Shown here: in pieces, positions 4,980 to 25,597 of the stretch
How the letters are laid out: every line of letters starts with the position of its first letter
Position numbering within the stretch: the first letter of the stretch is position 1
IMG/VR virus record: IMGVR_UViG_3300009435_000037
Coordinates: 1 to 29,364 of that record
Length of the DNA: 29,364 nucleotides
Strand: one strand, 5' to 3'
Origin: a virus
Lineage: Duplodnaviria; Caudoviricetes
Notes under the pieces: model-generated
What the model saw: the letters and a program-made list of their open reading frames with translations, nothing else
Databases searched by the model: none
What the model was told of the DNA's origin: nothing
Program-made: the position numbers and the translations under genes

Positions 4980-7394
4980 ATGTACAATGAGGAACAAGTA
5001 AAAGAAGCAACACTAGCTTATTTTAATGGTGATGAACTAGCCACAAATGTCTTTATGACAAAGTATTGTTTAAGAGACAAGAAAGGCAACTATGTTGAGA
5101 AAACACCTGATGATATGCATAGACGCCTTGCGGCAGAGTTTGCTCGTATGGAAGATAAGTTTGGGGATACAGGTCCCACTGAAAACGAGATCTATTCTTT
5201 CTTAAAAGACTTCAAATACATCGTTCCTCAGGGTTCTCCTATGATGGGTGTGGGAAATGATTATGTTAATGTTTCGCTCTCTAACTGCGTGGTTGTCGAC
5301 AATCCTCAGGACTCTGTTTCTTCTATTATGGATGCCGGTAAAGATATTGCTAATCTATTTAAGCGTCGTTGTGGGGTTGGTCTGGATATTTCTGATTTAC
5401 GTCCCGAAGGCGCTCCCGTTAACAACTCTGCTCGCACTACAACTGGCGCTTGGTCTTTTGCTGATTTTTATTCTTACGTCTGTCGTATGATCGGACAGAA
5501 TGGTCGTCGCGGTGCTCTAATGCTTTCAATGGATATTCGCCATCCGGATATTCAAAAGTTTGTTAGAATGAAGCACGATCTTACAAAGGTCACAGGAGCC
5601 AACGTATCTGTTAAGATAAGCGACAGTTTTATGGAAGCAGTTGAGAAAGGAGAACAGTTCACTTTACAGTTCCCGGTTGATGCTGAAACTCCAACACATT
5701 TAAGCGAGGTTAATGCTGTTGAACTTTGGAATGAGATTGTAGAGTCTGCTACAAAGACAGCAGAGCCTGGACTTCTTATGTGGGACAACATCACAAAGAA
5801 CCTTCCAGCACATTCTTACCCACAGTTCCAAACAAAGACAACAAACCCTTGTGGAGAGATTCCTCTTTCTGCTTATGATTCTTGTCGTTTGATTTCTTTA
5901 AACCTCAAACATCTCGTTACAGACGCCTTTACAGACAAAGCAGCATTTGACTTTAATAAGTTAAAGCAGATTGTTGCTGTTGGTATGCGACTTTCTGACG
6001 ATCTTGTAGAGTTAGAGTTGGAGAAGTTACAGAACATCCGGAATGTAGCAGATTCGGAAGATGAAAAGGTTTTATGGACAAAGTTATACGATGCCGCCGC
6101 CAATGGTCGCCGCACAGGCTTGGGGACACATGGTCTTGCTGATGCTGTTGCTAGAATGAACTTGTCGTATGACTCTGATGAGGCTGTAACCTTGATTGAG
6201 CAGATATATGAGATTGTTAGAGATACGGCTTACACAGAAAGTTGCTATCTTGCGCAAGAGCGTGGAGCATTCCCAGCATTTAACTGGGAGACAGAAAGCA
6301 ACAACGCTTACATTCAGCGTCTTCCACAAGAGATACAAGCTTTGATCCAGACGACTGGACGACGTAACATTTCTATTCTTACAAATGCGCCAACTGGTTC
6401 TGTTTCTATTATGTCGCAGACTTCATCTGGTTTGGAGCCTGTATTCAAGAACTTCTACATTCGTCGTCGTAAGTTGTCTCACAATGAGTTGGGTGTTGAA
6501 GCAGATTTCGTTGATGATCTAGGAGATCGTTGGTTGGAGTATAAGGTATTCCACCACAATGTTCGCGAATATCTCAATCTAATGAAAACAGAGGATATTC
6601 CAAGCTTCTTTGTAGAATCTGATTCTATTGATTGGTCACAGCGAGTCGTTATTCAAGCCGCGATCCAAAAGTCTATTGATCACAGTATTAGTTCTACTAT
6701 CAATCTTCCAAAGGGCACATCCCCGGAGGTTGTTGGAAAACTATACCAGCAAGGTTGGAAGATGGGGTTGAAAGGCATTACTGTATATGTTGACGGATCC
6801 CGAACAGGAGTTCTATTAACCGAGTCAGAAAAAGAAGAGAAAGAAGCATTTCCACAGTATTCCGCACCTAGACGCCCGGAAGAACTGGAATGTGATATTC
6901 ACCACACTACTATCAAGGGTGAAAAGTGGGCGATTGTTGTTGGATTATATGAAGGCAAGCCATACGAACTAATGGGTGGTCGTTCTGATTTGATCGAGAT
7001 CCCAAGAAGTAGAGTTACAGGATTTTTGGTTAAACATCGATTTAAGACAAAAAACTCTGTTTATGACTTGCGCATCGGAACGAATGGTGATACAGTTATC
7101 GTGAAGGACCTAGTAAAGACCTTTGATAACCCAAACCACAGTGCTTTCACTCGTATGATCTCACTTGGTTTGCGTCACGGAGCAAACATACAATATGTTG
7201 TAGAGCAGTTACAGAAAGACAAGGACTCTGATATGTTCTCGTTTTCAAGATGTATCGCTCGTATATTAAAGAACTACATTCCTGATGGACAGGAAGCAAC
7301 AGAGAAGACTTGTCCTGAATGTGGTGAAGATGGTTTGGTTTATGTTGAAGGTTGTGTAACTTGCACCTCTTGCGGTTTTGCAAAGTGCGGATAG
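4980..7394 (+). CDS. nrdJ: Class II (adenosylcobalamin-dependent) ribonucleotide reductase
   Basis: SLSNC, TNPCGEIPL active-site loop, APTGSVS, SISSTINLP, GLKGITVYVDGSR, C-terminal CPECG...EGCVTCTSCGFAKCG; no nrdB-like beta subunit in the window. Confidence 0.88.
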   Translation: MYNEEQVKEATLAYFNGDELATNVFMTKYCLRDKKGNYVEKTPDDMHRRLAAEFARMEDKFGDTGPTENEIYSFLKDFKYIVPQGSPMMGVGNDYVNVSLSNCVVVDNPQDSVSSIMDAGKDIANLFKRRCGVGLDISDLRPEGAPVNNSARTTTGAWSFADFYSYVCRMIGQNGRRGALMLSMDIRHPDIQKFVRMKHDLTKVTGANVSVKISDSFMEAVEKGEQFTLQFPVDAETPTHLSEVNAVELWNEIVESATKTAEPGLLMWDNITKNLPAHSYPQFQTKTTNPCGEIPLSAYDSCRLISLNLKHLVTDAFTDKAAFDFNKLKQIVAVGMRLSDDLVELELEKLQNIRNVADSEDEKVLWTKLYDAAANGRRTGLGTHGLADAVARMNLSYDSDEAVTLIEQIYEIVRDTAYTESCYLAQERGAFPAFNWETESNNAYIQRLPQEIQALIQTTGRRNISILTNAPTGSVSIMSQTSSGLEPVFKNFYIRRRKLSHNELGVEADFVDDLGDRWLEYKVFHHNVREYLNLMKTEDIPSFFVESDSIDWSQRVVIQAAIQKSIDHSISSTINLPKGTSPEVVGKLYQQGWKMGLKGITVYVDGSRTGVLLTESEKEEKEAFPQYSAPRRPEELECDIHHTTIKGEKWAIVVGLYEGKPYELMGGRSDLIEIPRSRVTGFLVKHRFKTKNSVYDLRIGTNGDTVIVKDLVKTFDNPNHSAFTRMISLGLRHGANIQYVVEQLQKDKDSDMFSFSRCIARILKNYIPDGQEATEKTCPECGEDGLVYVEGCVTCTSCGFAKCG

Positions 7395-7402
7395 GAGATA
7401 AA

Positions 7403-7678
7403 ATGAACTTTGTACCAGTAAACAATTACCTATACATTAGGACAATAGATGAAGAAGACGACAACACAGGAATCTTGCTTCCACAAGATTATCGATCAGT
7501 GGAATCACCACACGCAGTTGCCGAGTTATTGCAAACTCACACAACTACTAATAATGTAATGTGGGCTCGCGGTATTCATTTGGTTGTTGAGGCGCATATG
7601 ATGAAGGACATACAATATAACGGAGATACTTTCACGGTTGTTAAGGAAAACCACGTAATAGGGATTTTATCCGATTAA
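7403..7678 (+). CDS. groES: GroES-like co-chaperonin (divergent)
   Basis: From ATG 7403 (AGGAG RBS): MNFVPVNNYLYI, GILLP mobile loop, YNGDTFTVVKENHVIGIL C-terminus; 91 aa. Confidence 0.7.
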   Translation: MNFVPVNNYLYIRTIDEEDDNTGILLPQDYRSVESPHAVAELLQTHTTTNNVMWARGIHLVVEAHMMKDIQYNGDTFTVVKENHVIGILSD

Positions 7679-7682
7679 ACAA

Positions 7683-7689
7683 CTATTTA
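7683..7689 (+). promoter_or_regulatory. Candidate phage late-promoter motif CTATTTA upstream of the leader array
   Basis: Intergenic AACTATTTAAGTTG; the same or a one-mismatch motif precedes genes at 23857, 24944, 25624 and 28986. Confidence 0.45.
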
Positions 7690-7738: not shown

Positions 7739-8128
7739 ATGAAGCTTATAATGGAAAACTGGCGCAAGCTTCTTAAAGAAGAGATTGAACCTGTTGGCGA
7801 TCAACGCGCGCGAATGGCGGCTGCCCACGGCCGGCCCATGGGAGTCTATAATTCTGGACTTAGCCCTGAAGTCAAGAAGGGCACAGAACTTTTTTGGTAT
7901 GAGACTGCTGATGGCGAACATGTGCCTGTAGAAGATCCCCGGTTCGGTGGCCCCGATACAAAGAAAGTTTCTGGCGTTGTTGTTAGGATTGACCCAGGAT
8001 CACCGTCCGAAGATGTCGATTCGACGAACCTCGCCGGCTGGTTCCCCGGGCCATATGTGCTAATAAAGTTTCCCGGTGGCACTATGGAAGTAAATAGAGA
8101 GTGGTGGGACTCGATATTTATCAAATAA
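7739..8128 (+). CDS. Leader-array protein 1 (variant leader MKLIMENWRKLLKEEI + unknown cargo)
   Basis: 129-aa ORF with AGGA RBS; shares MKL...KEEI length and register with the six downstream leaders. Confidence 0.8.
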   Translation: MKLIMENWRKLLKEEIEPVGDQRARMAAAHGRPMGVYNSGLSPEVKKGTELFWYETADGEHVPVEDPRFGGPDTKKVSGVVVRIDPGSPSEDVDSTNLAGWFPGPYVLIKFPGGTMEVNREWWDSIFIK

Positions 8129-8141
8129 AAAGATTTATAAA

Positions 8142-8546
8142 ATGAAGTTAACAAAAGCAAGATTGCGACAGATTATCAAAGAAGAGATCAGCGCATTACA
8201 GAACGAGCCCCGTCCCTCGGTCACTGAGGCTTACCCCGACGATGCCGAAGCCGGACTCGACTCCATCGGTCATGGCTTCATTAAACGCGACGACCCCAGG
8301 CTGCAGCTACTTGATAATGCAGTTGAATATTTCTCTGACAATATACATCAGCCTCCTACCGATATTGATGTAGAAGAGTTTAGATACTATTACAACATAT
8401 ATCAAAAACTGCGATCCTTCCTCACGTCTATCCGCGGCCGCAGATTCGCCTCCAGGCTAGACAGGGGAATCAGGTCACAGTTAAGAGCAATACAAACAGC
8501 TTATGATAAGCAGCTCTTAGACCTCGACGTTAACGATGAGATTTAA
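8142..8546 (+). CDS. Leader-array protein 2 (MKLTKARLRQIIKEEI + unique cargo)
   Basis: 134-aa ORF with the conserved N-terminal leader. Confidence 0.85.
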   Translation: MKLTKARLRQIIKEEISALQNEPRPSVTEAYPDDAEAGLDSIGHGFIKRDDPRLQLLDNAVEYFSDNIHQPPTDIDVEEFRYYYNIYQKLRSFLTSIRGRRFASRLDRGIRSQLRAIQTAYDKQLLDLDVNDEI

Positions 8547-8563
8547 ACAAAAGGATTTATAAA

Positions 8564-8833
8564 ATGAAACTTACAAAAGCAAGATTGCGACAGATCATCA
8601 AAGAAGAAATAAGCACATTACAGAACGAATCTGCCCCGGCAGGTCGCCCACACAAGGTTCGTATGAATAGGTTCGGACGCGTTCTTATTATTAAGGACGC
8701 TGATCACCCTAGTTCTTATGCCGAGCCCGCCCCGGTTACTTTAGAAAAGTTATATGCTGATCTTAATCCTGGGGAAGAAGAGTGGATAAGTGACGAGGAT
8801 CTACAAGCGAATATGGAACTAGATAGGGCCTAA
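8564..8833 (+). CDS. Leader-array protein 3
   Basis: 89-aa ORF; first 22 aa nearly identical to protein 2 (MKLTKARLRQIIKEEIS[A/T]LQNE). Confidence 0.85.
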   Translation: MKLTKARLRQIIKEEISTLQNESAPAGRPHKVRMNRFGRVLIIKDADHPSSYAEPAPVTLEKLYADLNPGEEEWISDEDLQANMELDRA

Positions 8834-8837
8834 GAAA

Positions 8838-9077
8838 ATGAAACTCACCAAAGCAAGATTAAAGCAGATTATTAAAGAAGAGATCGACTTTCGAGGATCC
8901 GGTCTGGAGTTTGATACTTCCGTAGACCCAATGAATGCGTTGGGAGCCGCGCTTGAAGAGGCTATAAAGAAAGCGCAGACTGCCGTAGGGTCAAGCAAAG
9001 ATGGTTATGAAAAACGACTAGCAAGTAAAATCGCAGACACACTTTCCTCTCTAATAGAAGATATAAACGAGATATAA
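8838..9077 (+). CDS. Leader-array protein 4
   Basis: 79-aa ORF; MKLTKARLKQIIKEEI leader. Confidence 0.85.
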   Translation: MKLTKARLKQIIKEEIDFRGSGLEFDTSVDPMNALGAALEEAIKKAQTAVGSSKDGYEKRLASKIADTLSSLIEDINEI

Positions 9078-9078
9078 A

Positions 9079-9402
9079 ATGAAACTAACAAAAACAAAAC
9101 TAAAGCAGATCATCAAAGAAGAAATAGACAGCATACGGGAAGACCGCGATGCCGCAGCCACTGAATATGAGTTATACGCAAGTCTACAAGCAATCTCGAA
9201 AGATCTACAACAGTTCAAAGACGATCTAGATTTTTCTATGGGATTGACGGCTGGTTCACCGAGAACATCACAGATCTCGGAAAAAGTATATGAAATGATA
9301 AGAAAGGGCGCCTACGCGATGGAGCTAGCCCGAAACGCACTCGCACAGGAGATCGGCCAAGACCCGCATCCTGAACTAGCATCAGTAAGACAAGAGGATT
9401 AA
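9079..9402 (+). CDS. Leader-array protein 5
   Basis: 107-aa ORF; MKLTKTKLKQIIKEEI leader. Confidence 0.85.
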   Translation: MKLTKTKLKQIIKEEIDSIREDRDAAATEYELYASLQAISKDLQQFKDDLDFSMGLTAGSPRTSQISEKVYEMIRKGAYAMELARNALAQEIGQDPHPELASVRQED

Positions 9403-9406
9403 CAAA

Positions 9407-9733
9407 ATGAAACTAACAAAAGCAAGATTAAAGCAAATTATTAAAGAAGAGATCGAGGGTCAAGCCGCTCCAGCTCCAAGAGGCACTGAAGTTTATGTGG
9501 TTGAGCTTTATTCACATGATGGCCAAAGTAGAGCTATCTTTACAACTGAGGAAAGCGCAAAAGAACTTGTAGCGAGACTAGAGAAGCAAAAAAAGTTTGT
9601 TGAAGATAATAGTAGAACTCTTCGACCGCGCGATCTTAAGTACAATGACAAAGAAACAGGACAACAATTCCTGTTCTCGTCTATTACCTCTCCTACACGT
9701 ATATCTCTTTATACAATGCGCCTTCATCAGTAA
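9407..9733 (+). CDS. Leader-array protein 6
   Basis: 108-aa ORF; MKLTKARLKQIIKEEI leader; GAGGA RBS. Confidence 0.85.
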   Translation: MKLTKARLKQIIKEEIEGQAAPAPRGTEVYVVELYSHDGQSRAIFTTEESAKELVARLEKQKKFVEDNSRTLRPRDLKYNDKETGQQFLFSSITSPTRISLYTMRLHQ

Positions 9734-9751
9734 AACAAGAGGTTTAACAAA

Positions 9752-10144
9752 ATGAAACTAACAAAAGCAAAACTACAGAAGATTATAAAAGAAGAGATCG
9801 AGAAGGCTTATAAGCACCCGCTAGCCCGCGGCGTCCAAGTTATTAGAACGAGCCGGACGAAGCGCCCAGCAGACCCGGATGATTCTTATGACCCGGCAGC
9901 CGGAACCACAGACTCAACCTATGATATCTTAGATCAGCAAGGCAACAAGATCGGCTTCTTAGAGTACGATGAATACTTTGGCAATCTGGACGGTGAGTTA
10001 TACGACAGATACCTTCCTAGATTGCAGGGCTATCGATCCCACGGTGCGGGTCCTCTAGGAAAGCTACAATCTTTTTTCAAGTCTAAGACTGGTCAAAAGT
10101 GGCTCGACGTAAGCTTGAGACAAATGCAAAGAAACAAAACATAG
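9752..10144 (+). CDS. Leader-array protein 7
   Basis: 130-aa ORF; MKLTKAKLQKIIKEEI leader; GAGG RBS. Confidence 0.85.
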   Translation: MKLTKAKLQKIIKEEIEKAYKHPLARGVQVIRTSRTKRPADPDDSYDPAAGTTDSTYDILDQQGNKIGFLEYDEYFGNLDGELYDRYLPRLQGYRSHGAGPLGKLQSFFKSKTGQKWLDVSLRQMQRNKT

Positions 10145-10149
10145 AGCGC

Positions 10150-10178
10150 TTGACTTATCCAAGCATCAGTGGTATAGT
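10150..10178 (+). promoter_or_regulatory. Sigma70-type promoter with extended -10
   Basis: TTGACT (10150-10155), 17 nt, TGg-TATAGT (10173-10178), immediately after the array. Confidence 0.75.
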
Positions 10179-10186
10179 AATACCAT

Positions 10187-10915
10187 ATGATGAAGCTGCC
10201 TCCTCTTGAATACACCTTCGACAATATAGTTCTTGGGTGGCGAGAGGAGGCAGTTTCGTTTGCGCGAGAGAATGGCTATCACTTGATTGTGAATAGTGAG
10301 CAGCGTCCTTTCCATCACTTTGTTGGATATGAAGATATTAAAAGTGAATGGTATAAAGGAATCTATGATCTAGGAATAAGGTCATTATTACCAATACCTT
10401 TTAGCATCCAAACCATTGGATTAGAAGATAACAAGTTAAGAATCATTACCGAAGGCAACACCAAAGTTTTAATCAACTTTGGTAGTTTGCATATTTTTGA
10501 TCTTGATAACTGCGGTGATCTAGGAGTAAGCGAGGTTATAGAAGATTATCTAGTTTATGATATGTTTGATATAACACTTGGTTCTCGCCTTGGTCGCCAT
10601 ATCGTAATAAACCCCAAAGACAGTTTTATAAAGACAATAGATTTTGTTGTATCAAACCGCATTGATAAGAATACATCCGGGGATTATAAAGATATTGTTG
10701 TTACCAGCGTAATAGATTACAAAGACATAAAAAGCTTTGATTACTCTGATACTGTGATTCGCATATTTGTAGAGCGAACCTTAAAAGAAAACAACATAAA
10801 AAGACGAAGAGGACGTAGCCTTAAAATAGTTCATTCATCGCGACACATAATAAAAAATAACTTTAAGTTTAAAATATATGATGATTTAGATAAAAGGATA
10901 ACATTATATGAGTAA
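10187..10915 (+). CDS. Hypothetical protein (242 aa), possible degenerate Rossmann-like N-terminus
   Basis: FDNIVLGWREEAVSFA weakly resembles a beta-alpha dinucleotide-binding start but lacks GxGxxG. Confidence 0.7.
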   Translation: MMKLPPLEYTFDNIVLGWREEAVSFARENGYHLIVNSEQRPFHHFVGYEDIKSEWYKGIYDLGIRSLLPIPFSIQTIGLEDNKLRIITEGNTKVLINFGSLHIFDLDNCGDLGVSEVIEDYLVYDMFDITLGSRLGRHIVINPKDSFIKTIDFVVSNRIDKNTSGDYKDIVVTSVIDYKDIKSFDYSDTVIRIFVERTLKENNIKRRRGRSLKIVHSSRHIIKNNFKFKIYDDLDKRITLYE

Positions 10916-14700: not shown

Positions 14701-15197
14701 GTTTAATGGATGAGCGATTCTCTGGACGCAAGCATTTCTGGTCAGCTGTCGCAGTAGATAGAGTTTATAATCGCAAGAAGTTCAATGAGAACATTGAAAA
14801 GTATTACCCTGATGGCGACTTCTCTGCGGCAGAAGAAATCGAGAATCTAACATCAATCACTGGAATCTTTCCAATGCACTTGGTTGTTACACCAGAAGTT
14901 CAGCGCCAGTTGGATGAACATTACATTCCGCCGATTTCAGACTATGATCCAGAGTTAGGATTGGTATGGTTTATTCCTCGGCAGATTGTTCGAAAGAAAA
15001 CGAAGAATGGAAAGCCATATTGGATTGTCGAGGTAATCGATTCAAATTCGGCCTTGACACGCTTCCGCTGCTGGGGTATAGTAGAGGGGAAAGACAGGAT
15101 CCACCTGAACAGACCTTACATGGGCAAACTAGACTATGACCCAGCGTGGGGATTCTCAACGAGATCCATCAAAAGAAACTTAAGATTGTTAGGATAA
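11757..15197 (+). CDS. dnaE: DNA polymerase III alpha subunit (family C) with PHP domain
   Basis: LHAHS, ALTDHGNM, GVEAY, TADSHY (PHP); GPGRGSAAGSLVAYVLGIT, PDIDYD, SRHAGGV, KFDLLGL, YRPGP, YGFNKSHA. Confidence 0.96.
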   Translation: MTDKKIPFVGLHAHSVAGSIFDAMGYPSEHMNFCYENGGEALALTDHGNMNGFSHQLLHWKKMKAEGKNFKPIFGVEAYFLPSIEEWRDDYERVKADAKQAKSLAKQGDTSGATVEDEDASKKAIKSVINRRRHLVLLVQNQTGLTNLFKLISESYKEENFYRYPRVDYKMLNKYSEGIVAASACLGGPYAGNYWANREEGPEAVREAMRETTRRFVEIFGDRWHGELQWNNIPEQHELNQYIIEMSKEFGIPLISTADSHYPNPDAWRDRELYKRLGWLGKGAPAWAEDNTELPPGVEEIGYELYPKNGNQMWDSYKYYSKSCGVEYDDQLVMDSITRTHDIAFNMIEDFTPDTTVKLPNFVVPAGFTADQALVNYSLEGLRNLNFHDNKEYTDRLQTELDVIEDRGFSKYFLTMKAISDKANEVQLTGPGRGSAAGSLVAYVLGITQIDPIKYGLLFERFLRKDATDYPDIDYDVAEPMELKELLMEEWGKNSVVPISNWNTLQLKSLIKDISKFYGVPFIEVNKVTSQMIFEATPLAKVKHGIKAGVYNPTWKEVMELSPSLRGFLVKYPHIKTHVEALVGQVRSCSRHAGGVLVADDLNEHMPIISSGGVRQSPWAEGQHVRHLEPLGFIKFDLLGLSTLRMIEGAIRHILVRHKNNPNPTFKDVQDFYNANLHPDKIDFDDQKVYKNVFQSGNFAGIFQFTEMRAQEFCANAKPKSLVDISAITSIYRPGPLSANVHEQYIQAKSMPHEIDYINEHIKEVTQETYGFLIFQEQIALLAHKLGKNISLDEGNLLRKVLTKKGTGKGHEVKMRIHDKFINGCIEKGIRQREAEDMWERFEYFSGYGFNKSHAISYSAISFQCAWLWNYYPVEWMASFLDKEPEKRKERAINIAKQNGFTIEKADVNRSSFVWEIDPNNDRKLVQPLAGLKGLGDAAIQQIVDHRPFATIEDFLFHDDIVYSKLNKKALDRLTRAGAMNSLMDERFSGRKHFWSAVAVDRVYNRKKFNENIEKYYPDGDFSAAEEIENLTSITGIFPMHLVVTPEVQRQLDEHYIPPISDYDPELGLVWFIPRQIVRKKTKNGKPYWIVEVIDSNSALTRFRCWGIVEGKDRIHLNRPYMGKLDYDPAWGFSTRSIKRNLRLLG

Positions 15198-15200
15198 GAA

Positions 15201-15860
15201 ATGACTCATGAAGATGAAGCTAAATTAAAAGAATTAATTTATAAAACCCTGGAATGGACTTGGGAACCTAATGGCTGTCGAAGTTCGAAGCGTACAGATT
15301 ACCTTCACCAAGAATTAGAAAAGATAATTTTTCAAATGGTCTCAAAAAAGTTAGGATTAGAGTACAATTATGTTCATGAAACTAGGGTTCCGACAGCTAA
15401 TGACGGCGCCTTTAAGATTGACATCCTTGCATCAGATTCCAGAGGAGATTTGGCATTTTTGGTAAAGTTCATTGGAAGTTCCTATAATAAAAATCGTTTC
15501 AATTATGATAACACAGAAATCGGAGAATCGCTTAGGTTCCTTAGTCACGAACTCGAAAGAAGAAAAGTTTGTAGCTTAAACATTCTACCTGTGCATCTGC
15601 CCAGGTTCAAATCTGACGGCAGCTGTAAAGTAGAGAAGCTAAGCAAGAATGATACAAGTTACTTCCTTGATTGTCTAAAAGAAGATGTATCCCGCAGAGT
15701 GCATTCTGCTAATTTATTTTTTGAAATTGATGAAACAGTTTTGGAAGCTAAAAACAGGACAGAGTTGATCGAGCGACTGCGCAACCGCGGACAACAAGCC
15801 ATTAGAATTACGAATTTTGGAGAGTTTATCAAAAACATTGAAAAGTCACTATCAGCATGA
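15201..15860 (+). CDS. Putative Type II restriction endonuclease (PD-(D/E)xK-like)
   Basis: E...KIDIL...FLVK pattern; stop overlaps the start of the methyltransferase (ATGA at 15857-15860). Confidence 0.45.
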   Translation: MTHEDEAKLKELIYKTLEWTWEPNGCRSSKRTDYLHQELEKIIFQMVSKKLGLEYNYVHETRVPTANDGAFKIDILASDSRGDLAFLVKFIGSSYNKNRFNYDNTEIGESLRFLSHELERRKVCSLNILPVHLPRFKSDGSCKVEKLSKNDTSYFLDCLKEDVSRRVHSANLFFEIDETVLEAKNRTELIERLRNRGQQAIRITNFGEFIKNIEKSLSA

Positions 15861-17302
15861 ATTATTATGAATATCCAAAAACCCTAACAGATAAAAAGAA
15901 AAAAGAATTAGGCATCGTATACACTCCCAAGAGTGAAGTTTCTTACATAAATCAAAGTTGTTTGGATTTATGGGAAGAGGATAGTCCACCACGAGTAATA
16001 GATTTTAGCTGTGGCACGGGAGTTTTTCTTCATGATATGGCCGAGCGTATTAGCACTCGTTACAATCTTTCCTATTCAGAGGTAATGAATAACTATATTT
16101 ATGGCTCTGATGTAGATTCGGATGCGCTTAAGATATGTGAGAACCTTACTGGATGTCCGAATTTAGAAAACCGGAACGGCCTTGAAGTCAATTTGGAGCC
16201 TTATGACATGATAGTGGGAAATCCGCCTTATGTTCGGTTACAGAATTTAGATTTACTTACCCGTGAAAAGTTGGAAAGCTTTGAGTGGTGTCATGGCGAT
16301 ACAGATCTGTATATTGCATTCTTACAAAGAATTATGATGTCCGATAAGATCTATGGCTTTATTTGCCCAAATAGCTGGTTATATACAGCCGCTGGTAAAG
16401 AAGTCAGGGAAGAGCTTCTAACGTCTAGAAGGCCCACAGAACTAATAGATTTTCGAGCACATCAAGTCTTCAAAGGCGTCGGAGCTTATTGCAGCATTGT
16501 AATTGCCAACAACGTTACATCAGATAGTTATGTTTTTAAAACTAATTTAAACTCGGCTGCGGCTCACAATAGATATGACGATGTTAACGAAGAGAATTTC
16601 TATTTAAATTCACAAGAAGCTGAATTTTTATCTCGTGTCGCTGATAAGAAATTAGCTTTTGCTGATTGCTTTGACGTTAAGGTGGGTCTTGCTACGCTAG
16701 CGGATAAGGTATATTTCTTACCAGATTGTCAGATAAAAGATAATTTAATCTATTGCCCTGAAAAAGATCTATATGTAGAAAAAGATATTACAAAATTATG
16801 TTTTAAAGCTTCAAAGCTAAGCTACTATGACACCAATCGTCAAGATTATATTATCTTTCCTTATAACTCAAAGGGTAACTGCTATGAAGACCATTTTGTA
16901 AAAAATACTTATCCTTTGGCATATGAGTACCTGACTCAAAATAAAGATAAACTTTTATCTCGTGATAAAGGGAAATTTGCGAAGCTCTGTGAATCTGGTA
17001 AAGCTATTTGGTTTCAATATGGGCGCTTGCAGGCGATTAAAATGGGGGGGGAAAAGATTCTTTTGTCGACTCTTGATAAAGAAATCAGATTTAAAAGAAT
17101 AAAACAAGGATATTTTATATCTGGCTATTGCGTCCTTCCGAAGGAAGGGTATAATTTTGATGATATTGAGAACTGCTTAAGCCATCCAGATGCGACAAGT
17201 TTTTTAAACTTAAAAGGCAAACCGATGAGCGGCGGCTATTATTCTGTTAGTAAGCAGCTTTTTAATAGTTTTAGATTTAACAAAAATGAGGATAAGAAAT
17301 GA
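15857..17302 (+). CDS. N6-adenine DNA methyltransferase, gamma class (TaqI/Eco57I-like) with C-terminal target recognition region
   Basis: GIVYTP (motif X), IDFSCGTGVFL (motif I), IVGNPPYVR (motif IV), DLYIAF, FICPNSWL, WFQYGR. Confidence 0.9.
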   Translation: MNYYEYPKTLTDKKKKELGIVYTPKSEVSYINQSCLDLWEEDSPPRVIDFSCGTGVFLHDMAERISTRYNLSYSEVMNNYIYGSDVDSDALKICENLTGCPNLENRNGLEVNLEPYDMIVGNPPYVRLQNLDLLTREKLESFEWCHGDTDLYIAFLQRIMMSDKIYGFICPNSWLYTAAGKEVREELLTSRRPTELIDFRAHQVFKGVGAYCSIVIANNVTSDSYVFKTNLNSAAAHNRYDDVNEENFYLNSQEAEFLSRVADKKLAFADCFDVKVGLATLADKVYFLPDCQIKDNLIYCPEKDLYVEKDITKLCFKASKLSYYDTNRQDYIIFPYNSKGNCYEDHFVKNTYPLAYEYLTQNKDKLLSRDKGKFAKLCESGKAIWFQYGRLQAIKMGGEKILLSTLDKEIRFKRIKQGYFISGYCVLPKEGYNFDDIENCLSHPDATSFLNLKGKPMSGGYYSVSKQLFNSFRFNKNEDKK

Positions 17303-18324
17303 TTGCAGATATAGTAGTAGGTTTGTCTTATGGTGATGAAGGCAAAGGAAAAGTAACACATCACCTTTTAAGGTCTGGCAAGTATACACATTGTATTCGC
17401 TATAATGGCGGATGTAATGCTGGTCATACCATATACCACGAAGGCACCAAGTTTGTAACACATCACATTCCAGCCGGTGTGTTCTTTGGAATAAGGTCTA
17501 TCATTGGTAATGGATGCGTTGTAAATATTGATCAGTTTAATCGAGAGCTTCAAATGCTTCAAGAAGGCGGCATCAATACAGATGGTTTGATTTTTATCGC
17601 GAATAACGCTCATATCATTACTGATGCTCACTTGGAAGAAGATCGCAAAGACACAACGATCGGCACAACAAAGCAAGGCAATGGTCCAGCATACCGCGAT
17701 AAGTATGATCGTCAAGGAACATTGGCGTCAGAGGCGCTAGTTGATACACCTTATCTTATAGATTTGTATCGGGAACTTCACGAAACAGATGAAGAAGTTG
17801 TAGTCCTCTGTGAGGGCGCACAAGGCTTTGGATTGGATATTGATTGGGGAGACTACCCTTATGTAACTTCAAGCCACTGTACGTCCGCTGGTGCCCTTCT
17901 AAACGGCATCCCTCCGCAAGCTGTCCGTAAGGTTTATGGAGTAACCAAGGCTTACGATACTTATGTTGGTGCTAAGGAGTTTCACGGCGAAGGAAGAATC
18001 TTTGATTTATTACAGCAGTTAGGAAATGAGTATGGTGCGACCACTGGTCGCCCTCGCCAATGTAACTGGCTTAATGTTCGGGATCTTAAAAAGGCAATAG
18101 ATATCAATGGAGTCACCGACCTTATCCTTAATAAGGTAGATATTCTACGAGAAGCAGGAGAATGGAGCTTGCGTTCGTCGGACAACGATGCTATTATGCT
18201 TAAGCTTGGAAGCGAAGAGAACTGGAAGAGTTACATTAACGGTTATATTAATAATGAAGCGTCCTTGACATTCGGGGACACCCGAGTTAACATTACATTC
18301 TCGGAATCACCAGAAAGAATTTAA
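17299..18324 (+). CDS. purA: Adenylosuccinate synthetase (short form)
   Basis: GDEGKGK, GGCNAGHT, IGTTKQGNGPAY, EGAQG, YPYVTSS, EYGATTGRPR, NKVD. Confidence 0.93.
   Translation: MIADIVVGLSYGDEGKGKVTHHLLRSGKYTHCIRYNGGCNAGHTIYHEGTKFVTHHIPAGVFFGIRSIIGNGCVVNIDQFNRELQMLQEGGINTDGLIFIANNAHIITDAHLEEDRKDTTIGTTKQGNGPAYRDKYDRQGTLASEALVDTPYLIDLYRELHETDEEVVVLCEGAQGFGLDIDWGDYPYVTSSHCTSAGALLNGIPPQAVRKVYGVTKAYDTYVGAKEFHGEGRIFDLLQQLGNEYGATTGRPRQCNWLNVRDLKKAIDINGVTDLILNKVDILREAGEWSLRSSDNDAIMLKLGSEENWKSYINGYINNEASLTFGDTRVNITFSESPERI
18265..18293 (+). promoter_or_regulatory. Sigma70-type promoter inside the purA 3' end
   Basis: TTGACA (18265-18270), 17 nt, TAACAT (18288-18293). Confidence 0.55.
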
Positions 18325-18810: not shown

Positions 18811-19275
18811 ATGATTTTACAATACCATATGATTCACGATAATGTTTTCGCTCCAACGCGATCCAATCCAAGCGATGCTGGACTAGATTTAAGATGGAGC
18901 CCAGCAGACACTTCTTTAACAGCGCTGCGTATTGAGCCAGGAGAGAGTTGTATTATTCCAACTGGCTGTCGCTTTGCTATTCCACATGGTTATATGATGG
19001 AGATTAAGAACCGTTCTAGTATGGCCGCAAAGTATAGTTTGATTGTCGGCGCTTGTGTTGTCGATAGTGGGTATGACGGAGAAGTATTCGTCAACCTTCA
19101 CAACATTGGAAAGACATCCGCAGTCTTGGAGCCAGGACACAAGGTAGCACAAGCAGTGATTGTTCCGGTTGTTCACGCTCGCTTTGTCGCCAGCGAGACA
19201 CCAGACATTTATGACTGGCATCCAATCACGATTAGTAACCGCGCTGACGGCGCACTAGGGAGCACAGGAAAGTGA
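18811..19275 (+). CDS. dut: Trimeric dUTPase
   Basis: DAGLDL, RSS, VVDSGYDGEV, AQ, RADGALGSTG (motifs I-V). Confidence 0.93.
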   Translation: MILQYHMIHDNVFAPTRSNPSDAGLDLRWSPADTSLTALRIEPGESCIIPTGCRFAIPHGYMMEIKNRSSMAAKYSLIVGACVVDSGYDGEVFVNLHNIGKTSAVLEPGHKVAQAVIVPVVHARFVASETPDIYDWHPITISNRADGALGSTGK

Positions 19276-19835
19276 CGAACACTCTACCAAAGCCTATGGC
19301 TAGAAGCTTGTATCTACCAGAACAAGTAAATCAAGAGTCAATGAATAAGTTGACGAAGAGCATTATTGGAATCAATGAGAGCGATGAATACTTAAAGAAG
19401 TTATATGCGATCAATGATATAATCTACGATCCTAAGCCGATTAAGTTGTATATTGATTCTTATGGTGGCGCTGTGTATCAGTGCTTCGGGTTGCTTGGAG
19501 TTATGGCGAAGTCTGAAACTCCTATCCACACTATTGTAACTGGTGCCGCTATGTCTTGCGGGTTTATGATTCTAATCTCGGGACATAAGCGCTTTGGATA
19601 TGAGTTGTCCACGCCGCTTTACCATCAGGTTTCAACTGGGTTCCGGGGCAATGTTCAGGATATGGAAGAAAGCCTGGAAGAAACAAAGAGACTACAAAAG
19701 AAGATCGAGAAGATTACACTCGAACGAACCAGTATTAGTAAGAAGAAGCTTAAAAGCATTCTTAAGAATAAGGTTGACTGGCATATGACAGCAAACGAAG
19801 CGCTCGCCTTGGGCGTTATTGATGAGATCATTTAA
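19272..19835 (+). CDS. clpP: ClpP-family serine protease (paralogue 1)
   Basis: YIDSYGG, GAAMSCG (Ser), YHQ (His), DWHMTANEALALGVIDEII (Asp); GTG start overlapping the dut stop. Confidence 0.88.
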   Translation: MTNTLPKPMARSLYLPEQVNQESMNKLTKSIIGINESDEYLKKLYAINDIIYDPKPIKLYIDSYGGAVYQCFGLLGVMAKSETPIHTIVTGAAMSCGFMILISGHKRFGYELSTPLYHQVSTGFRGNVQDMEESLEETKRLQKKIEKITLERTSISKKKLKSILKNKVDWHMTANEALALGVIDEII

Positions 19836-20584
19836 TGAGTTACAGTAAGTCTGTTGAGTTATACGGCGACGGTATTGGAAAGGTAGAATATGTTTCACAT
19901 ATGGGATCTGACCTTACCGTTGTAAACTCGGCAAGAGTTTCCTTTGGGGTTGAGAAGGAACAGTTGGATGATAAAGATAAGAAGTTAATCAACTATCTAA
20001 TCAAGCACCGACACACTTCAACCTTGGAGCATAACCTTGTTACATTCCGCTTTTGTGTTCCTTTATATATTCGTAGTCAGCATCACCGCCATAGAACTTG
20101 GTCTTATAATGAGATATCCAGGCGGTATACTGATGTGGATCTCCGATTCTATGAGCCAAAGGCTTTTAGAACACAGCACAAGTCTAACCGGCAAGCATCA
20201 AACGCCGAAGAGTTGATTAATCCCGAGATCACGACTTCCGTTTTTAATGAAGACGGAAGTAAGTGGGAAGGCTTTTTTATAGACCAAGAAGTCAAAAGCA
20301 CAAATCTTGTAAAAGACCACCACAAACAAAGCCTTGAACTGTTTAACCAACTCATCGAAGCAGGAGTTTGTCGAGAACAAGCCCGTGGAGTTCTACCACA
20401 GAACCTTTACACCGAATACTACGGCACAGTCAATCTATCAAACCTCTTGAAGTTCATTGACCTTCGCACACACGAAGGGGCACAATGGGAGATTGTAAAA
20501 GTCGCTGCAGCCTGTCTAGAAATCGCCACCGACCTGTTTCCAGAAACTGTGGGTGCTTATCGTAGGATTAGGAACGAAGAATGA
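19835..20584 (+). CDS. thyX: Flavin-dependent thymidylate synthase
   Basis: NSARVS, HTSTLEH, RHRTWSYNEISRRY (RHRx7SxR), REQARGVLP, LRTHEGAQWEI. Confidence 0.95.
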   Translation: MSYSKSVELYGDGIGKVEYVSHMGSDLTVVNSARVSFGVEKEQLDDKDKKLINYLIKHRHTSTLEHNLVTFRFCVPLYIRSQHHRHRTWSYNEISRRYTDVDLRFYEPKAFRTQHKSNRQASNAEELINPEITTSVFNEDGSKWEGFFIDQEVKSTNLVKDHHKQSLELFNQLIEAGVCREQARGVLPQNLYTEYYGTVNLSNLLKFIDLRTHEGAQWEIVKVAAACLEIATDLFPETVGAYRRIRNEE

Positions 20585-20850
20585 ACAAAGACCTACAACA
20601 AGACATAGGGATTGCTGTCGCCGCTTTTACGGAGAATCAGAAGAGATTTATCGCGACTGGTGATCACAAATACTTTGAGTATTGGCTTAGTGCCGAAACA
20701 GAACTATTGGCAACTTTACAAGATGTGTTTGTGAGACACAAAAATAAGCACACTTTTAAAGAAATGATATTCTTTTCTCTCGTGATAGGCAGCGCCGTCA
20801 AAGGCACAATAGAAGACCTACACAGGTTTGTTAAGGAGAACGAAGAATGA
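20581..20850 (+). CDS. Hypothetical protein ending IEDLHRFVKENEE
   Basis: 89-aa ORF with ATGA overlaps at both ends. Confidence 0.65.
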   Translation: MNKDLQQDIGIAVAAFTENQKRFIATGDHKYFEYWLSAETELLATLQDVFVRHKNKHTFKEMIFFSLVIGSAVKGTIEDLHRFVKENEE

Positions 20851-21146
20851 GTTCCAGCATCGAAATCAAAACGGACGGATGCAAGTCTCTTTACCTTGAC
20901 ATAAAGACCACAGGCGTAGAGTTTGAGGTGGAACCCGGTTATCCAGAAGCGGAACTCATTACGATGTGGTTTGATCTGAAAGATAAGGAAGATCGAAAGG
21001 CAATCAAGAATCTTATTTCACATCTCCAACATCAGTTGCAGGTTCATGAATCACCCCCTTATTCTACTTGTCCTTCTTGTTCTTGGCTAAAAAGAGAACG
21101 AGGCATAGAAGACCTACACAGGTTTGTTAAGGAGAACGAAGAATGA
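20809..21146 (+). repeat. Perfect 42-bp direct repeat (20809-20850 and 21105-21146)
   Basis: ATAGAAGACCTACACAGGTTTGTTAAGGAGAACGAAGAATGA occurs twice; shorter 3' copies at 21281-21299 (19 bp) and 20572-20584 (13 bp). Confidence 0.95.
20847..21146 (+). CDS. Hypothetical protein ending IEDLHRFVKENEE
   Basis: 99-aa ORF with AAGGAG RBS, a CPSC motif and ATGA overlaps. Confidence 0.7.
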   Translation: MSSSIEIKTDGCKSLYLDIKTTGVEFEVEPGYPEAELITMWFDLKDKEDRKAIKNLISHLQHQLQVHESPPYSTCPSCSWLKRERGIEDLHRFVKENEE

Positions 21147-21283
21147 AAATGCCACCAAGAATGCCTAAGCTCAACAAAGAACAAAAAGCATATCAGACTG
21201 CCAGAGATTGGTGGTATGTGTTTGCTGGCTTTATTATCGGAGGCATCCCAGCTTTTATTCTGGGATTTGAGTTGGCGAAATAA
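21143..21283 (+). CDS. Small single-TM protein (46 aa, not in ORF track)
   Basis: Manual translation MKMPPRMPKLNKEQKAYQTARDWWYVFAGFIIGGIPAFILGFELAK*; AAGGAG RBS supplied by the repeat. Confidence 0.7.
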   Translation: MKMPPRMPKLNKEQKAYQTARDWWYVFAGFIIGGIPAFILGFELAK

Positions 21284-21295
21284 GGAGAACGAAGA

Positions 21296-22061: not shown

Positions 22062-22239
22062 AAAGCAAGCAGCCAACTTTGGTAAGCACCCAAAGGAATG
22101 TTGCGTTTGTTCAACTCCTTTTGAGAGAACCAAAGAAACAGTTAAAACTTGGCAAGTTGTAATAAAAAGCGAGAGAGTTCGCTTGACTTGTCCAGATTGT
22201 TGGACTACAATACAGGAAGCAATGGAGAACGCAAAATGA
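21991..22239 (+). CDS. Small basic Zn-finger-like protein
   Basis: CCVC...CPDC cysteine pairs; ATGA overlap with the next gene. Confidence 0.7.
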   Translation: MKKIRRHIPGKQKKNRKAVQERLEKQAANFGKHPKECCVCSTPFERTKETVKTWQVVIKSERVRLTCPDCWTTIQEAMENAK

Positions 22240-23249
22240 AAGAAGCCTTAACCTATTCGGACGTATTAATCACGCCCCAGTTTTCAGATATTGAATCAAG
22301 AAAAGAAGTATCATTATCATCAAAGTTAGGATTTATCGAGTGTGAACTGCCGATCATAGCATCCCCGATGGACACAGTGTCGGAAGAGCAAATGGCGACA
22401 GCAATGGATTCCAAAGGTGCCCTTGCTATACTACACAGATATAACAGTATTGAAGAACAAGCAAGTATGGTTACTGCTGTTCGAAAAGAAAGTTCATTAG
22501 TAGGCGCAGCAGTTGGAACATCAGGGGATTACCTTGAAAGAGCCTATGCGTGCTATGAAGCAGGCGCCGATGTAATATGTGTTGATGTTGCTCACGGTCA
22601 TCATATTCTTATGAAGGCTGCGTTAAGACAGTTAAGGCAGATGGTAGGTGATGATGTTCACATAATGGCTGGGAACATAGCAACCTTAGGCGGATACAAC
22701 GATCTTTGTGATTGGGGTGCGGATTCTGTTAGATGTAATATAGGTGGAGGCTCAATCTGCTCAACACGCATTCAAACCGGACACGGTGTTCCGGGTCTTC
22801 AAACAATATTTGATTGCGCCAAATCAAAGAACGCTGGATCGATTCCTATTATCGCTGATGGAGGCATTCGCAACTCGGGTGATATTGTAAAGGCTCTTGC
22901 TGCTGGCGCTGACTTTGTAATGTTGGGCTCTTTATTGGCTGGAACAACGGAATCCCCGGGCGACATTATGATTGGTCGGGATGGAAACAAACACAAGGCT
23001 TACAGAGGTATGGCTTCAAAGGACGCTCAAATGTCTTGGAGAGGCAAGACAGCATCTTTGGAAGGAATCGCCACAACGATCCCATATAAGGGGTCAGTAA
23101 TAAACATTCTGGACGATCTAGAAAGAGGAATCCGTTCAGGTTTATCATACTCCGGCGCACGAACCATTGATGAACTACAAGCAAAAGCACACTTCATCCG
23201 GCAAACAGCAAGTGGGCAAACCGAAAGTGGAACCCATATTTTAAGATGA
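22236..23249 (+). CDS. guaB: IMP dehydrogenase / GMP reductase family protein lacking CBS domains
   Basis: Likely start 22236 (GGAG RBS): LTYSDVLI, ASPMDTV, DVAHGH, AGNI, GGGSICSTR (catalytic Cys), IADGGI, MLGSLLAG, YRGMAS. GuaB versus GuaC not resolved. Confidence 0.85.
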   Translation: MKEALTYSDVLITPQFSDIESRKEVSLSSKLGFIECELPIIASPMDTVSEEQMATAMDSKGALAILHRYNSIEEQASMVTAVRKESSLVGAAVGTSGDYLERAYACYEAGADVICVDVAHGHHILMKAALRQLRQMVGDDVHIMAGNIATLGGYNDLCDWGADSVRCNIGGGSICSTRIQTGHGVPGLQTIFDCAKSKNAGSIPIIADGGIRNSGDIVKALAAGADFVMLGSLLAGTTESPGDIMIGRDGNKHKAYRGMASKDAQMSWRGKTASLEGIATTIPYKGSVINILDDLERGIRSGLSYSGARTIDELQAKAHFIRQTASGQTESGTHILR

Positions 23250-23578: not shown

Positions 23579-23817
23579 AAGACTGCGCTATAAAATGTTA
23601 TACACACGATGTACCCTGTGCTCAAAAGGAATGTAGGTTACACTTAGACTATGAGGATGACTTAAACTGTACTGATATTGCTGTTTATAAGCACGGCGAG
23701 ATGACGCTAGAACAAATAGGAATAAGGCACGGTGTAAGCATCGTCAGGGCAAAGCAACTTGTTGATGGCGCTCTGTTGAAATTAAAAAAGACATTATCAA
23801 ATGAAAATACTATTTAA
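23575..23817 (+). CDS. Small Cys-rich protein with sigma70 region-4-like HTH
   Basis: MTLEQIGIRHGVSIVRAKQLVDGALLKLK resembles the region 4.2 consensus TLEEIG..fgVSrERvRQIe.kAL.KL; five Cys in the N-terminal half. Confidence 0.7.
   Translation: MKDCAIKCYTHDVPCAQKECRLHLDYEDDLNCTDIAVYKHGEMTLEQIGIRHGVSIVRAKQLVDGALLKLKKTLSNENTI
23810..23816 (+). promoter_or_regulatory. Candidate late-promoter motif CTATTTA
   Basis: TACTATTTAAAAC, 40 nt upstream of the acidic gene at 23857. Confidence 0.4.
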
Positions 23818-23856
23818 AACAGCATATTCACGAACAATGTTAGGAGTTTTGTAAAA

Positions 23857-24468
23857 ATGTCTAAGAAATCACTTTTGAACGAGTCACAGGTTCGCCAGTT
23901 CATGAAGCTAGCGAAGCTTGAGCCACTATCCCCAGGCTTTGTTGAGGGACTTAAAGAAGGCGCAGGCCGTATGAGCATGCGCGATGAAGACGAACTAGAA
24001 GAAGTTCGATCTGATGCCGCAGGTGGCGGTTTAGAGGATGCCCGAAGAGGTCACGGCAGAGGCCGAGGACCAACCGATCGTCTTGAAGAAGAAGAGGATA
24101 TGGAGATGGACGTTGACGCAGCCGAAATGGAAGACGCTGCTGGAGACGACGAAGAGATAGAGATGGATGCTGAACTAGAAGCACCAGTTGACGCCGATGT
24201 AGGTGGAAAGATGGTTGCTGTTGATGATTTCCTCTCCGCGCTAGAAACTGCTTTGGAGTCCGCAATGGGCGAAGAAGTTGAGATTGATGCTGATGCTGAT
24301 GACGCTGACTTGGATGACGAGCCAGCAGAAATTGAAGCCCCAGTTGATGATGCCCCGGCAGATGTTGAGGTTGATGATGAGATGGGAGCAGATGACGCGC
24401 TTATGGAAGCAGTCACGAAGCGAGTAGCAAAGAGAATCCTTATGGAGGCACTTTCTACAAAGAAGTAG
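23857..24468 (+). CDS. Highly acidic protein, candidate prohead core/scaffold-like
   Basis: D/E-rich low-complexity 203-aa ORF with many L-x-E sites (LNE, LKE, LEE, LME); AGGAG RBS. Confidence 0.6.
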   Translation: MSKKSLLNESQVRQFMKLAKLEPLSPGFVEGLKEGAGRMSMRDEDELEEVRSDAAGGGLEDARRGHGRGRGPTDRLEEEEDMEMDVDAAEMEDAAGDDEEIEMDAELEAPVDADVGGKMVAVDDFLSALETALESAMGEEVEIDADADDADLDDEPAEIEAPVDDAPADVEVDDEMGADDALMEAVTKRVAKRILMEALSTKK

Positions 24469-24943: not shown

Positions 24944-25597
24944 ATGATTATGTTTAATAACGAAAGCACAGAAACAGAGCCTGAGGAAGAGGAGGAGATC
25001 TCTGAGCGCCAAGCAGCAATGTTAATGGCTGCGGCATTAGAGCAGCAAGATAAGGCACCCAACACCATTGGTTTAGTTGGAGACTTAAACGAAGAATCAG
25101 CACAAGAGTTATACCACGGTTTATTACAGTTAAACGGCGGCAGCATCTTTCCCAACCCTAGAAAGGAAGATGAAGAGGAAGAAGACGATATACACTTTCT
25201 AATCTCAACTGCCGGAGGAACTGTCTATGATATGTTTGGCGTTGTGGATATGATGAGGATTGTAAAGGAACGTCGCGACATTTCTACATTAGGCACCGGA
25301 AAGATCTTCTCTGCTGGTGTGCCTATCTTGGCGGCAGGAACCAAAGGCAAGAGGTTTATCACTCGCAATGCTCGCATTATGATGCATCGTTGTTCAGCCG
25401 GAAATATGGGAACGACAGCCGACATTAAGGCGACACACGATGAGGTGCGACTAATGGAAGATCAAATGGTACAGATAATCGCAGAAAGCTCAGAACTATC
25501 TGTGGGTGAGATACACAACATGTTTTCAAAGAACACAGATGAATATTTCTCTGCGCAAGAAGCAATTGAAATGGGTCTTGTTGATAAAATCATCTAA
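24944..25597 (+). CDS. clpP: ClpP-family serine protease (paralogue 2, with acidic insertions)
   Basis: ISTAGG, GKIFSAG (Ser), MMHR (His), TDEYFSAQEAIEMGLVDKII (Asp). Confidence 0.85.
   Translation: MIMFNNESTETEPEEEEEISERQAAMLMAAALEQQDKAPNTIGLVGDLNEESAQELYHGLLQLNGGSIFPNPRKEDEEEEDDIHFLISTAGGTVYDMFGVVDMMRIVKERRDISTLGTGKIFSAGVPILAAGTKGKRFITRNARIMMHRCSAGNMGTTADIKATHDEVRLMEDQMVQIIAESSELSVGEIHNMFSKNTDEYFSAQEAIEMGLVDKII

Follow-up and report, generated by a model that had tools for sequence, protein, structure and literature searches.

A leader peptide, most likely a capsid-targeting propeptide, at the starts of exchangeable genes in a T4-like phage clade

A viral record of 29,364 nucleotides (nt) (IMG/VR IMGVR_UViG_3300009435_000037; this whole 29-kb stretch is called the window below) contains a tandem array of seven small genes, here termed cargo genes, six of which open with variants of one 16-codon leader. 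Selection acts on the leader peptide, the content of the array is polymorphic among strains, the joints between array variants lie at leaders, and related genomes encode T4-type head genes. Judged by its sequence, the leader is most likely a capsid-targeting propeptide. The probable explanation, in our view, is that the array is expressed late, that the leader would guide its products into the prohead core and be removed by an S77 protease, that the cargos would be delivered into the host, and that the DNA homology used for exchange is maintained by selection on the peptide. The array and its flanks are as follows (window coordinates and strand).

7403–7678, +: conserved GroES-like gene that borders the variable slot on the left (PHROG 3188, E 0.003; syntenic in relatives)
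7682–7689, +: ACTATTTA, putative late-promoter motif at the array head (17/17 leader-holding slots, 0/7 empty slots)
7739–8128, +: first cargo gene, 129 amino acids, second leader type (MKLIMENW...KEEI); no Pfam or PHROG match
8142–8546, +: cargo gene, 134 amino acids, leader 8142–8189; ratio of non-synonymous to synonymous differences per site (pN/pS) 0.68 against strain L037
8564–8833, +: cargo gene, 89 amino acids, leader 8564–8611; extra leader-bounded gene ahead of it in strain L107
8838–9077, +: cargo gene, 79 amino acids, leader 8838–8885; deleted in register in L107
9079–9402, +: cargo gene, 107 amino acids, leader 9079–9126; its last codons contain the upstream element of the next unit
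9399–9425, +: 27-nt stretch identical to 9744–9770, the joint of an exact deletion of cargo 9407
9407–9733, +: cargo gene, 108 amino acids, leader 9407–9454; leaderless homolog in L244, replaced in L037
9752–10144, +: terminal cargo gene, 130 amino acids, leader 9752–9799; homolog in the L243 head operon
10147–10178, +: right boundary, comprising the sigma-70-like promoter of gene 10187 and a short hairpin; distal units in L037, L105 and L108 are preceded by a copy of the boundary's 5' part
10187–10915, +: conserved right-flank gene, placed by synteny in relatives; family not assigned by Pfam or PHROG

Six leader copies and selection on the peptide

The ATG starts at 8142, 8564, 8838, 9079, 9407 and 9752 have codons 1–16 in common, MKLTK[A/T][R/K]L[K/R/Q][Q/K]IIKEEI, with 12 of the 16 residues invariant. 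A sequence-only reading of the window had described most differences between the copies as silent, and every synonymous set that it listed is present; the upstream strings common to 8142 and 8564 and to 9407 and 9752, as well as the ...LQNE extension, are also as it described. Across the 15 pairs, codons 2–16 contain 89 synonymous differences on 138 sites (pS 0.64) and 34 non-synonymous differences on 537 sites (pN 0.063). The pooled, Jukes-Cantor-corrected ratio of non-synonymous to synonymous divergence (dN/dS) is ~0.045, for pairs that are not independent and of which 5 of 15 are saturated. Nucleotide identity between leaders is 36–45 of 48, whereas 465 pairs of 31 other window starts average 16 and do not exceed 27; because the control maximum is only 27, the likeness is not due to chance. 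The low dN/dS, together with the convergence of three leader types on L/I-x-E, supports the earlier proposal that selection acts on the peptide and not on a DNA or RNA motif. The seventh array gene, at 7739, which has the MKLIMENW type of leader, and the ACTATTTA motif at 7682 were absent from that reading.

Each leader had also been said to have its own ribosome-binding site (RBS). A Shine-Dalgarno match of at least 4 nt is present only ahead of 8564, 9407 and 9752, so the claim holds for three of the six copies and fails for the remaining three. The genes at 8838, 9079 and 9407 begin 4, 1 and 4 nt past the preceding stop, which places their upstream element within the coding end of the preceding cargo. 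Such tight stop-start coupling, with the A-rich starts, would be seen in an expression cassette in which an A-rich RBS and first codons give strong late translation and the peptide matters little; the string G-E-N-K-M found ahead of leaders in fused proteins (see below) also reads like a translated RBS. This account is very unlikely, since silent sites are near saturation and yet L8, I12 and E14 are invariant or nearly so in 63 leaders, and since half of the copies have no clear Shine-Dalgarno match.

The further claim that similarity ends abruptly after the leader is largely correct, the exception being a second L/I-x-E at residues 19–25 across the family. The leader was modelled as a helix by AlphaFold (pLDDT ~50–58). 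A Sec-type signal peptide was rejected, there being no hydrophobic core (median best 8-residue hydrophobicity 0.12, net charge +4). Amphipathicity was also discarded as evidence, the hydrophobic moment of the leader being 0.37 against a median of 0.31 and a 95th percentile of 0.58 for cargo windows. Concerted evolution of the leaders was considered on the basis of codon identity at same-residue sites, which is 0.60 within and 0.56 between genomes (0/200 permutations), and was not accepted, the effect being small and one that codon bias could also yield. Just ahead of the leader at 8142, a 17-nt indel between short repeats distinguishes window positions 8105–8141 from L037 positions 4980–5003; it changes the spacing of 7739 and 8142 from 13 nt to an overlapping stop-start and leaves the ends of both proteins unchanged.

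Array content and recombination joints

In relatives found via the gene at 10908, the gene order dnaB-nrdA-groES-slot-g10187-g10908-dnaE is kept. Both flanks are present at 25 loci, four near-duplicate pairs included. Seven of these slots are empty, all without ACTATTTA; 17 hold one to four leader genes, all with ACTATTTA; and L027 has a leaderless insert without the motif. Three leader types alternate in the slots of the distant relatives, and none of the window's cargos was found in these 25 slots.

Closer to the window, strains L037, L016, L105, L107, L108 and L109 have flanks that are 96–98% identical, most of the records being partial (L106 duplicates L037, and L110, which agrees with the window in length and spacing, was left out as the window's own record). 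Array content differs from that of the window in 6/6 of these strains. The last array gene differs in all six where it is visible, with a different one in each of L016, L105, L107, L108 and L109, and the slot repertoire of the window and close strains together comprises 14 tagged cargos and one leaderless gene. L037 is window-like up to leader 5; beyond it come three different tagged genes and one more leader, truncated where the contig ends. In L107 the 8564 start occurs twice, with an additional gene between the copies, and cargo 8838 is missing; the in-register joint of this deletion lies in 11 identical nt common to the 8838 and 9079 starts. The cargo switch in L109 is at the end of leader 6, and L105 and L108 have upstream DNA and leader in common and diverge after codon 16. 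A cargo family of the L105 slot recurs at L007:8789–9205, in a lineage with only 84% NrdA identity. At L107 4360–4460 (locus reverse strand), an RBS element past the last cargo runs into a promoter and a g10187 5' end that are both of the more distant G006/G010 type; to judge from this sequence, exchange with another lineage extended into that flanking gene.

Between the window and L037, pN/pS is 0.34 for cargos and 0.03 for core genes (Fisher P 2e-9), a tenfold faster rate. Positive selection on the cargos was rejected, as none exceeds a pN/pS of 1 (maximum 0.68). The comparison of composition suggested in the sequence-only reading sets the cargos apart, the GC content of 5/7 being above that of all ten core genes and codon adaptation being lower in most. 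A scan for a 14-nt promoter pattern returned mostly unrelated loci and one near-identical fragment, L129, which ends within gene 7739.

Colinear blocks end at 11 places in the region: seven at −19 to +47 relative to a leader ATG, four at the right boundary and none within a cargo. These represent about five events; leader zones account for approximately one fifth of the array. A 4,146-nt contig of run X4 lacks precisely 345 nt and is joined at the 27-nt identical stretch, which amounts to a leader-to-leader deletion of cargo 9407; a mis-join is argued against because 27 nt is shorter than the assembly word of these runs, which we take to be 31 letters. Contigs of runs X2 and X5 contain extra leader-bounded units. 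The near-identical records and run X4 thus bear out the suggestion that leader DNA can act as the joint for gain, loss and swap of cargos, with 7/7 internal breakpoints at leaders. The same reading had taken RBS plus leader to be the duplicated module, which does not cover the distal units of L037, L105 and L108; there the downstream gene's promoter is also repeated in part (hairpin and −35 box), so that growth at the 3' end used a longer module.

In-register joints and a hairpin repeated in distal units would also be produced if the repeat were primarily an attC-like DNA site worked by a site-specific recombinase. This is extremely unlikely: the joints are scattered from −19 to +47, the DNA is less conserved than the peptide, and the PF00589 tyrosine integrase was found in 0/5 near-complete relatives (control 14/14; the window's own genome is a fragment), in agreement with the earlier view that no dedicated integrase is involved. 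Integron arrays are promoter-headed tandem rows of exchangeable genes bounded by repeats, and the present array resembles them in having a putative promoter at the head of tandem exchangeable genes between repeats. It differs in the lack of a tyrosine integrase in relatives, the lack of a fixed crossover, a protein-coding repeat under peptide selection and a variable end that is promoter-distal. An integron was rejected for want of IntI-type PF00589 in those relatives and of a fixed attC crossover.

As a control, leaderless insertions at 15205–17288 and 20581–21295 were inspected; short stop-RBS-ATG repeats bound both of them, and L016 and L030 differ from the window at each. Because leaderless accessory genes are also gained and lost at such repeats, the mechanism is genome-wide: exchange at gene starts is general in this phage genome, and the leader is a longer landing site kept intact by selection. 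Protein-level selection would keep 45–60 nt of similar DNA at each gene start and so provide an integrase-free exchange site. T4 itself recombines at 6–10-nt microhomologies, according to passages of PMC9391042. The joints were probably formed by homologous or micro-homologous recombination between leaders, by the phage RecA.

1416–2537, +: RecA-family recombinase, candidate catalyst (PF00154, E 6e-36)

The 15205–17288 insert encodes an Eco57I/N6-type DNA methyltransferase and an upstream gene without a family name; it is missing in L016 and L030, which are joined at the repeat (15190–15204, 17288–17302). The 20581–21295 slot, a second variable one made up of small leaderless genes, contains an exact 42-nt repeat (20809–20850/21105–21146) and an RBS-ATG string that occurs three times.

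The leader as a candidate capsid-targeting propeptide

The window encodes RecA, DnaB, NrdA, DnaE, two Clp proteases and GroEL. Marine or sediment metagenomes predominate among the runs that contain most of the region; in two RNA runs from a single study, 0.56 and 0.38 of the region's words are present, a measure of word content only. A T4 gp23 capsid protein and an S77 prohead protease are encoded by each of the five near-complete relatives (165–194 kb), and T4 portal and terminase genes were found in relative G006. Because the near-complete relatives have the gp23 capsid protein and the S77 protease, the phage clade is, on gene content, T4-like. The closest capsid protein in the cultured-phage collection is that of Flavobacterium phage vB_FspM_immuto_2-6A (41.5%).

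Passages of PMC9026906 describe N-terminal propeptides of 10–19 residues that target T4 internal proteins to the prohead core (section 2.6), and cleavage by T4 gp21 after L/I-X-E. In the present family, L/I-x-E ends at residue 14 in 62/64 leader representatives, and a second copy is present at residues 19–25 in 26/64, compared with a background of 64/816 (7.8%). No enrichment was seen in these representatives when E was replaced by K, D, Q, R or A. Among leaders of the remaining types, 61/61 have L/I-x-E within the first 20 residues. The N-termini of the capsid, scaffold-position and protease proteins have it in the first 12 residues in 15/15 cases (three families in five genomes) versus 85/602 genes; all these counts are inflated by related sequences, and "scaffold" was assigned from position. 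A leader profile grown from the six copies matched 124/6,670 open reading frame (ORF) starts and 3/441,854 internal windows in the fetched loci, many of which had been fetched with an ATG-anchored pattern.

The genomic setting of the leader genes also points to the head. ACTATTTA has a strand bias of 88:7 for the coding strand, precedes the scaffold-position and tail-sheath genes in 5/5 relatives, and heads 11/25 leader runs as against 61/733 other genes; a weak late-sigma match was obtained in G003 (E 7e-5). The protease gene has type-A leader genes beside it in G006, G010 and L243. In L243, two tagged genes lie between portal and protease, behind ACTATTTA, one of them a homolog of cargo 9752 (60% identical), and cargo 9752 is also found at two further loci, in L240 and L242. 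A 67%-identical homolog of cargo 9407 in L244 has no leader and no ACTATTTA nearby, and its neighbours are small leaderless genes; such a case would be expected if cargos can acquire the tag or lose it. The motif recurs in the window ahead of another gene.

23809–24468, +: second ACTATTTA and gene 23857, whose conserved acidic product has an N-terminus of the LLNE type and is a candidate for a head-core protein

The scaffold-position protein (L100:2057–3112) has a conserved C-terminus, RM..LAG[LI], that is similar to the N-termini of the acidic 23857 family and the immuto gene L113:11676, and this segment is perhaps a further core-binding tag.

The array would be transcribed late from ACTATTTA, and the leader would bind the prohead core. 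A T4-type prohead protease may then cut after L/I-x-E, at E14 or at a second site at 18–25, and the cargos would be packaged and ejected into the host, where they may have a host-takeover or anti-defence role. The same docking could serve a different end if the tagged proteins were core or scaffold accessories or outer decoration, degraded or virion-resident rather than ejected. The position of leader genes in the head operon suits such a structural role, as do the mostly net acidic cargos (42/64, versus 15 basic) and the fragmentation of the T4 core proteins gp22, gp67 and gp68 by the same protease, described in passages of PMC5694885. Removal of residues 1–22 nevertheless leaves 64 unrelated cargo families among 81 distinct tagged proteins, strain turnover is rapid, the slot is empty in 7/25 relatives and some cargos are enzyme-like (HAD, ParB-like), all of which fit dispensable effectors better; a structural role is unlikely.

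It is also improbable that the peptide addresses a non-capsid partner late in infection, for example a host complex or, as a degron or folding tag, the phage's own ClpP-like proteases or GroEL/GroES. The window does encode a chaperonin and two Clp proteases, and the slot adjoins GroES, but most leader genes are far from GroES, others adjoin the prohead protease, and the E-specific L/I-x-E common to capsid, scaffold-position and protease N-termini would be left unexplained.

None of the seven array proteins matched a family above threshold in Pfam, PHROGs or PADLOC, the PADLOC models being for defence and not anti-defence. AlphaFold models of cargos 9752 and 9407 had pLDDT values of 69 and 77 and best Z values of 5.2 and 5.1; Foldseek returned no match at E<=0.001 for either, and no fold was assigned. 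The ESM Atlas gave no usable match for 9752 and only unnamed clusters below 0.9 for 8142.

Several other genes of the window are auxiliary: two ClpP-like genes (19272–19835 and 24944–25597), an adenylosuccinate synthetase gene (17299–18324) and, presumably, an IMP-dehydrogenase-like gene (22149–23249). A small ORF at 1055–1270 has a lipoprotein-like signal and a tail of Asp/Ser-rich repeats, and similar genes lie near the region in relatives. Two inserts interrupt dnaE in L009/L010, and a single insert interrupts nrdA in L025; these are likely introns, inteins or homing endonucleases. The relatives' head module includes a gene for ribosomal protein bS21 (PF01165; L100:10825–11043) on the same strand as the head genes, unlike the reverse-strand bS21 case of PMC9723584.

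Distribution, known systems and significance

The leader profile matches 10,175 of 1.84 billion protein-cluster representatives at E<=0.001. Among the best 150 of the 10,175 matches, which were selected for multiple copies, 144 begin with the leader, 140 contain internal copies, and Pfam domains were found in only two, one of them spurious. Fused proteins (P0024, P0026, P0030–P0179) consist of two to four leader-cargo units, many with an acidic predicted cut site before the internal leader. L/I-x-E stands just ahead of 43/156 internal leaders (background 4.7%), and hydrophobic-x-E ahead of 88/156 (background 8.6%), which fits fused cassettes that a protease would cut apart.

A degenerate pattern run against 596 billion bases of prokaryotic genomes found six stretches, all in metagenome-assembled bins, and 4/6 carry genes like those of this phage clade in the fetched stretch. 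L117, L118 and L119, from bacterial bins, have 6–13 tagged genes per 6 kb (13 copies in L119) and are probably phage contigs binned with bacteria. In immuto_2-6A, look-alike leaders of the MKKSQLRQIIKEAL type were seen in 3/308 ORFs, at record positions 102294, 102880 and 113188, 150 of its 160 kb being covered. The leader had no match in Pfam, PHROGs or the cultured-phage collection, and nothing meaningful was obtained with its profile against PDB sequences. A 22-residue leader query against 50,697 phage records gave no match either, in a search of low power that included no direct comparison with the T4 capsid targeting sequence (CTS) peptide. No description of the leader was found in the titles and abstract starts of the literature searched, which covers few subscription journals.

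Internal-protein loci of T-even phages were reportedly treated by Repoila et al. in 1994. The T4 proteins IPI, IPII and IPIII, which bear a CTS, come from such loci (passages of PMC9026906, PMC12373910, PMC3012670, PMC9391042 and PMC7697877), and T-even Ip1-3 are described in parts of PMC12373910 and PMC3012670 as sharing only the leader and as each blocking one GmrSD nuclease. The likenesses are unrelated small dispensable proteins, a common N-terminal leader of 10–19 residues ending at L/I-X-E, variable genomic hotspots, and head genes of the gp20, gp21 and gp23 type. The differences are that the present leader, a basic 16-mer, is one of at least three coexisting types; that arrays lie behind a putative late motif and reach 13 copies in 6 kb; and that there are fused multi-leader proteins and ~10^4 clusters, compared with ~10 reported Ips. 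At the level of sequence, the comparison supports the view that the array would work like T-even internal-protein hotspots with a different tag.

The head and ejection propeptides of giant phages (SPN3US gp53/gp54 and the phiKZ inner body), as described in passages of PMC5694885, are similar in having identical N-termini on diverged proteins, redundant protease sites and a putative CTS-like role. Those described there belong to paralog families and are mostly long propeptides with S/A-X-E sites, whereas the cargos here are unrelated, short and exchanged between strains. Phage immuto_2-6A has the same head-operon layout and look-alike leaders, in a shorter variant with few copies; its virion proteome was not found in the literature searched.

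The following points weigh against leader-guided packaging and leader-based exchange. Packaging and cleavage are predicted from sequence in this clade, the head genes are absent from the window and taken from relatives at 72–89% protein identity, and counts over related genomes are not independent. ACTATTTA is missing within 80 nt of 14/25 leader runs, and a type-A gene stands beside the protease in only 2/5 whole relatives (not in G001, G003 or G004). The placing of E behind a hydrophobic residue could be due in part to a helix that continues, and a read-through RBS (G-E-N-K-M) could account for the E ahead of fused leaders. No recognisable injected-effector domain is present, Pfam domains occurring in 4/95 cargos (HAD-like, ParB-like, DUF2608). 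With regard to exchange, the X4 deletion is one contig at a depth of 4.8, L107 has single-base indels even in core genes, so that its frameshifts may be errors, and selection for intact genes would likewise leave surviving joints near gene starts.

The principle is already known from T-even internal proteins, which limits the surprise. Should the tag prove to be a packaging signal, ~10,000 "hypothetical" phage protein clusters would become screenable as virion-delivered by a pattern of 16 residues, a class that in T4 consists of specific anti-restriction proteins, and the cultured relative with look-alike leaders opens packaging to testing. A wider proposal, possible rather than probable and advanced here tentatively, is that the tag is an unannotated capsid-loading signal carried by over 10,000 unrelated protein families, which would be among the largest virion-delivered host-takeover and anti-defence repertoires of aquatic T4-like phages, with integrase-free cassettes that recruit leaderless genes and fused cassettes that would be protease-cut polyproteins. 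At the level of the locus, wild strains show protein-level selection maintaining the DNA homology that drives integrase-free gain, loss and swap of genes.

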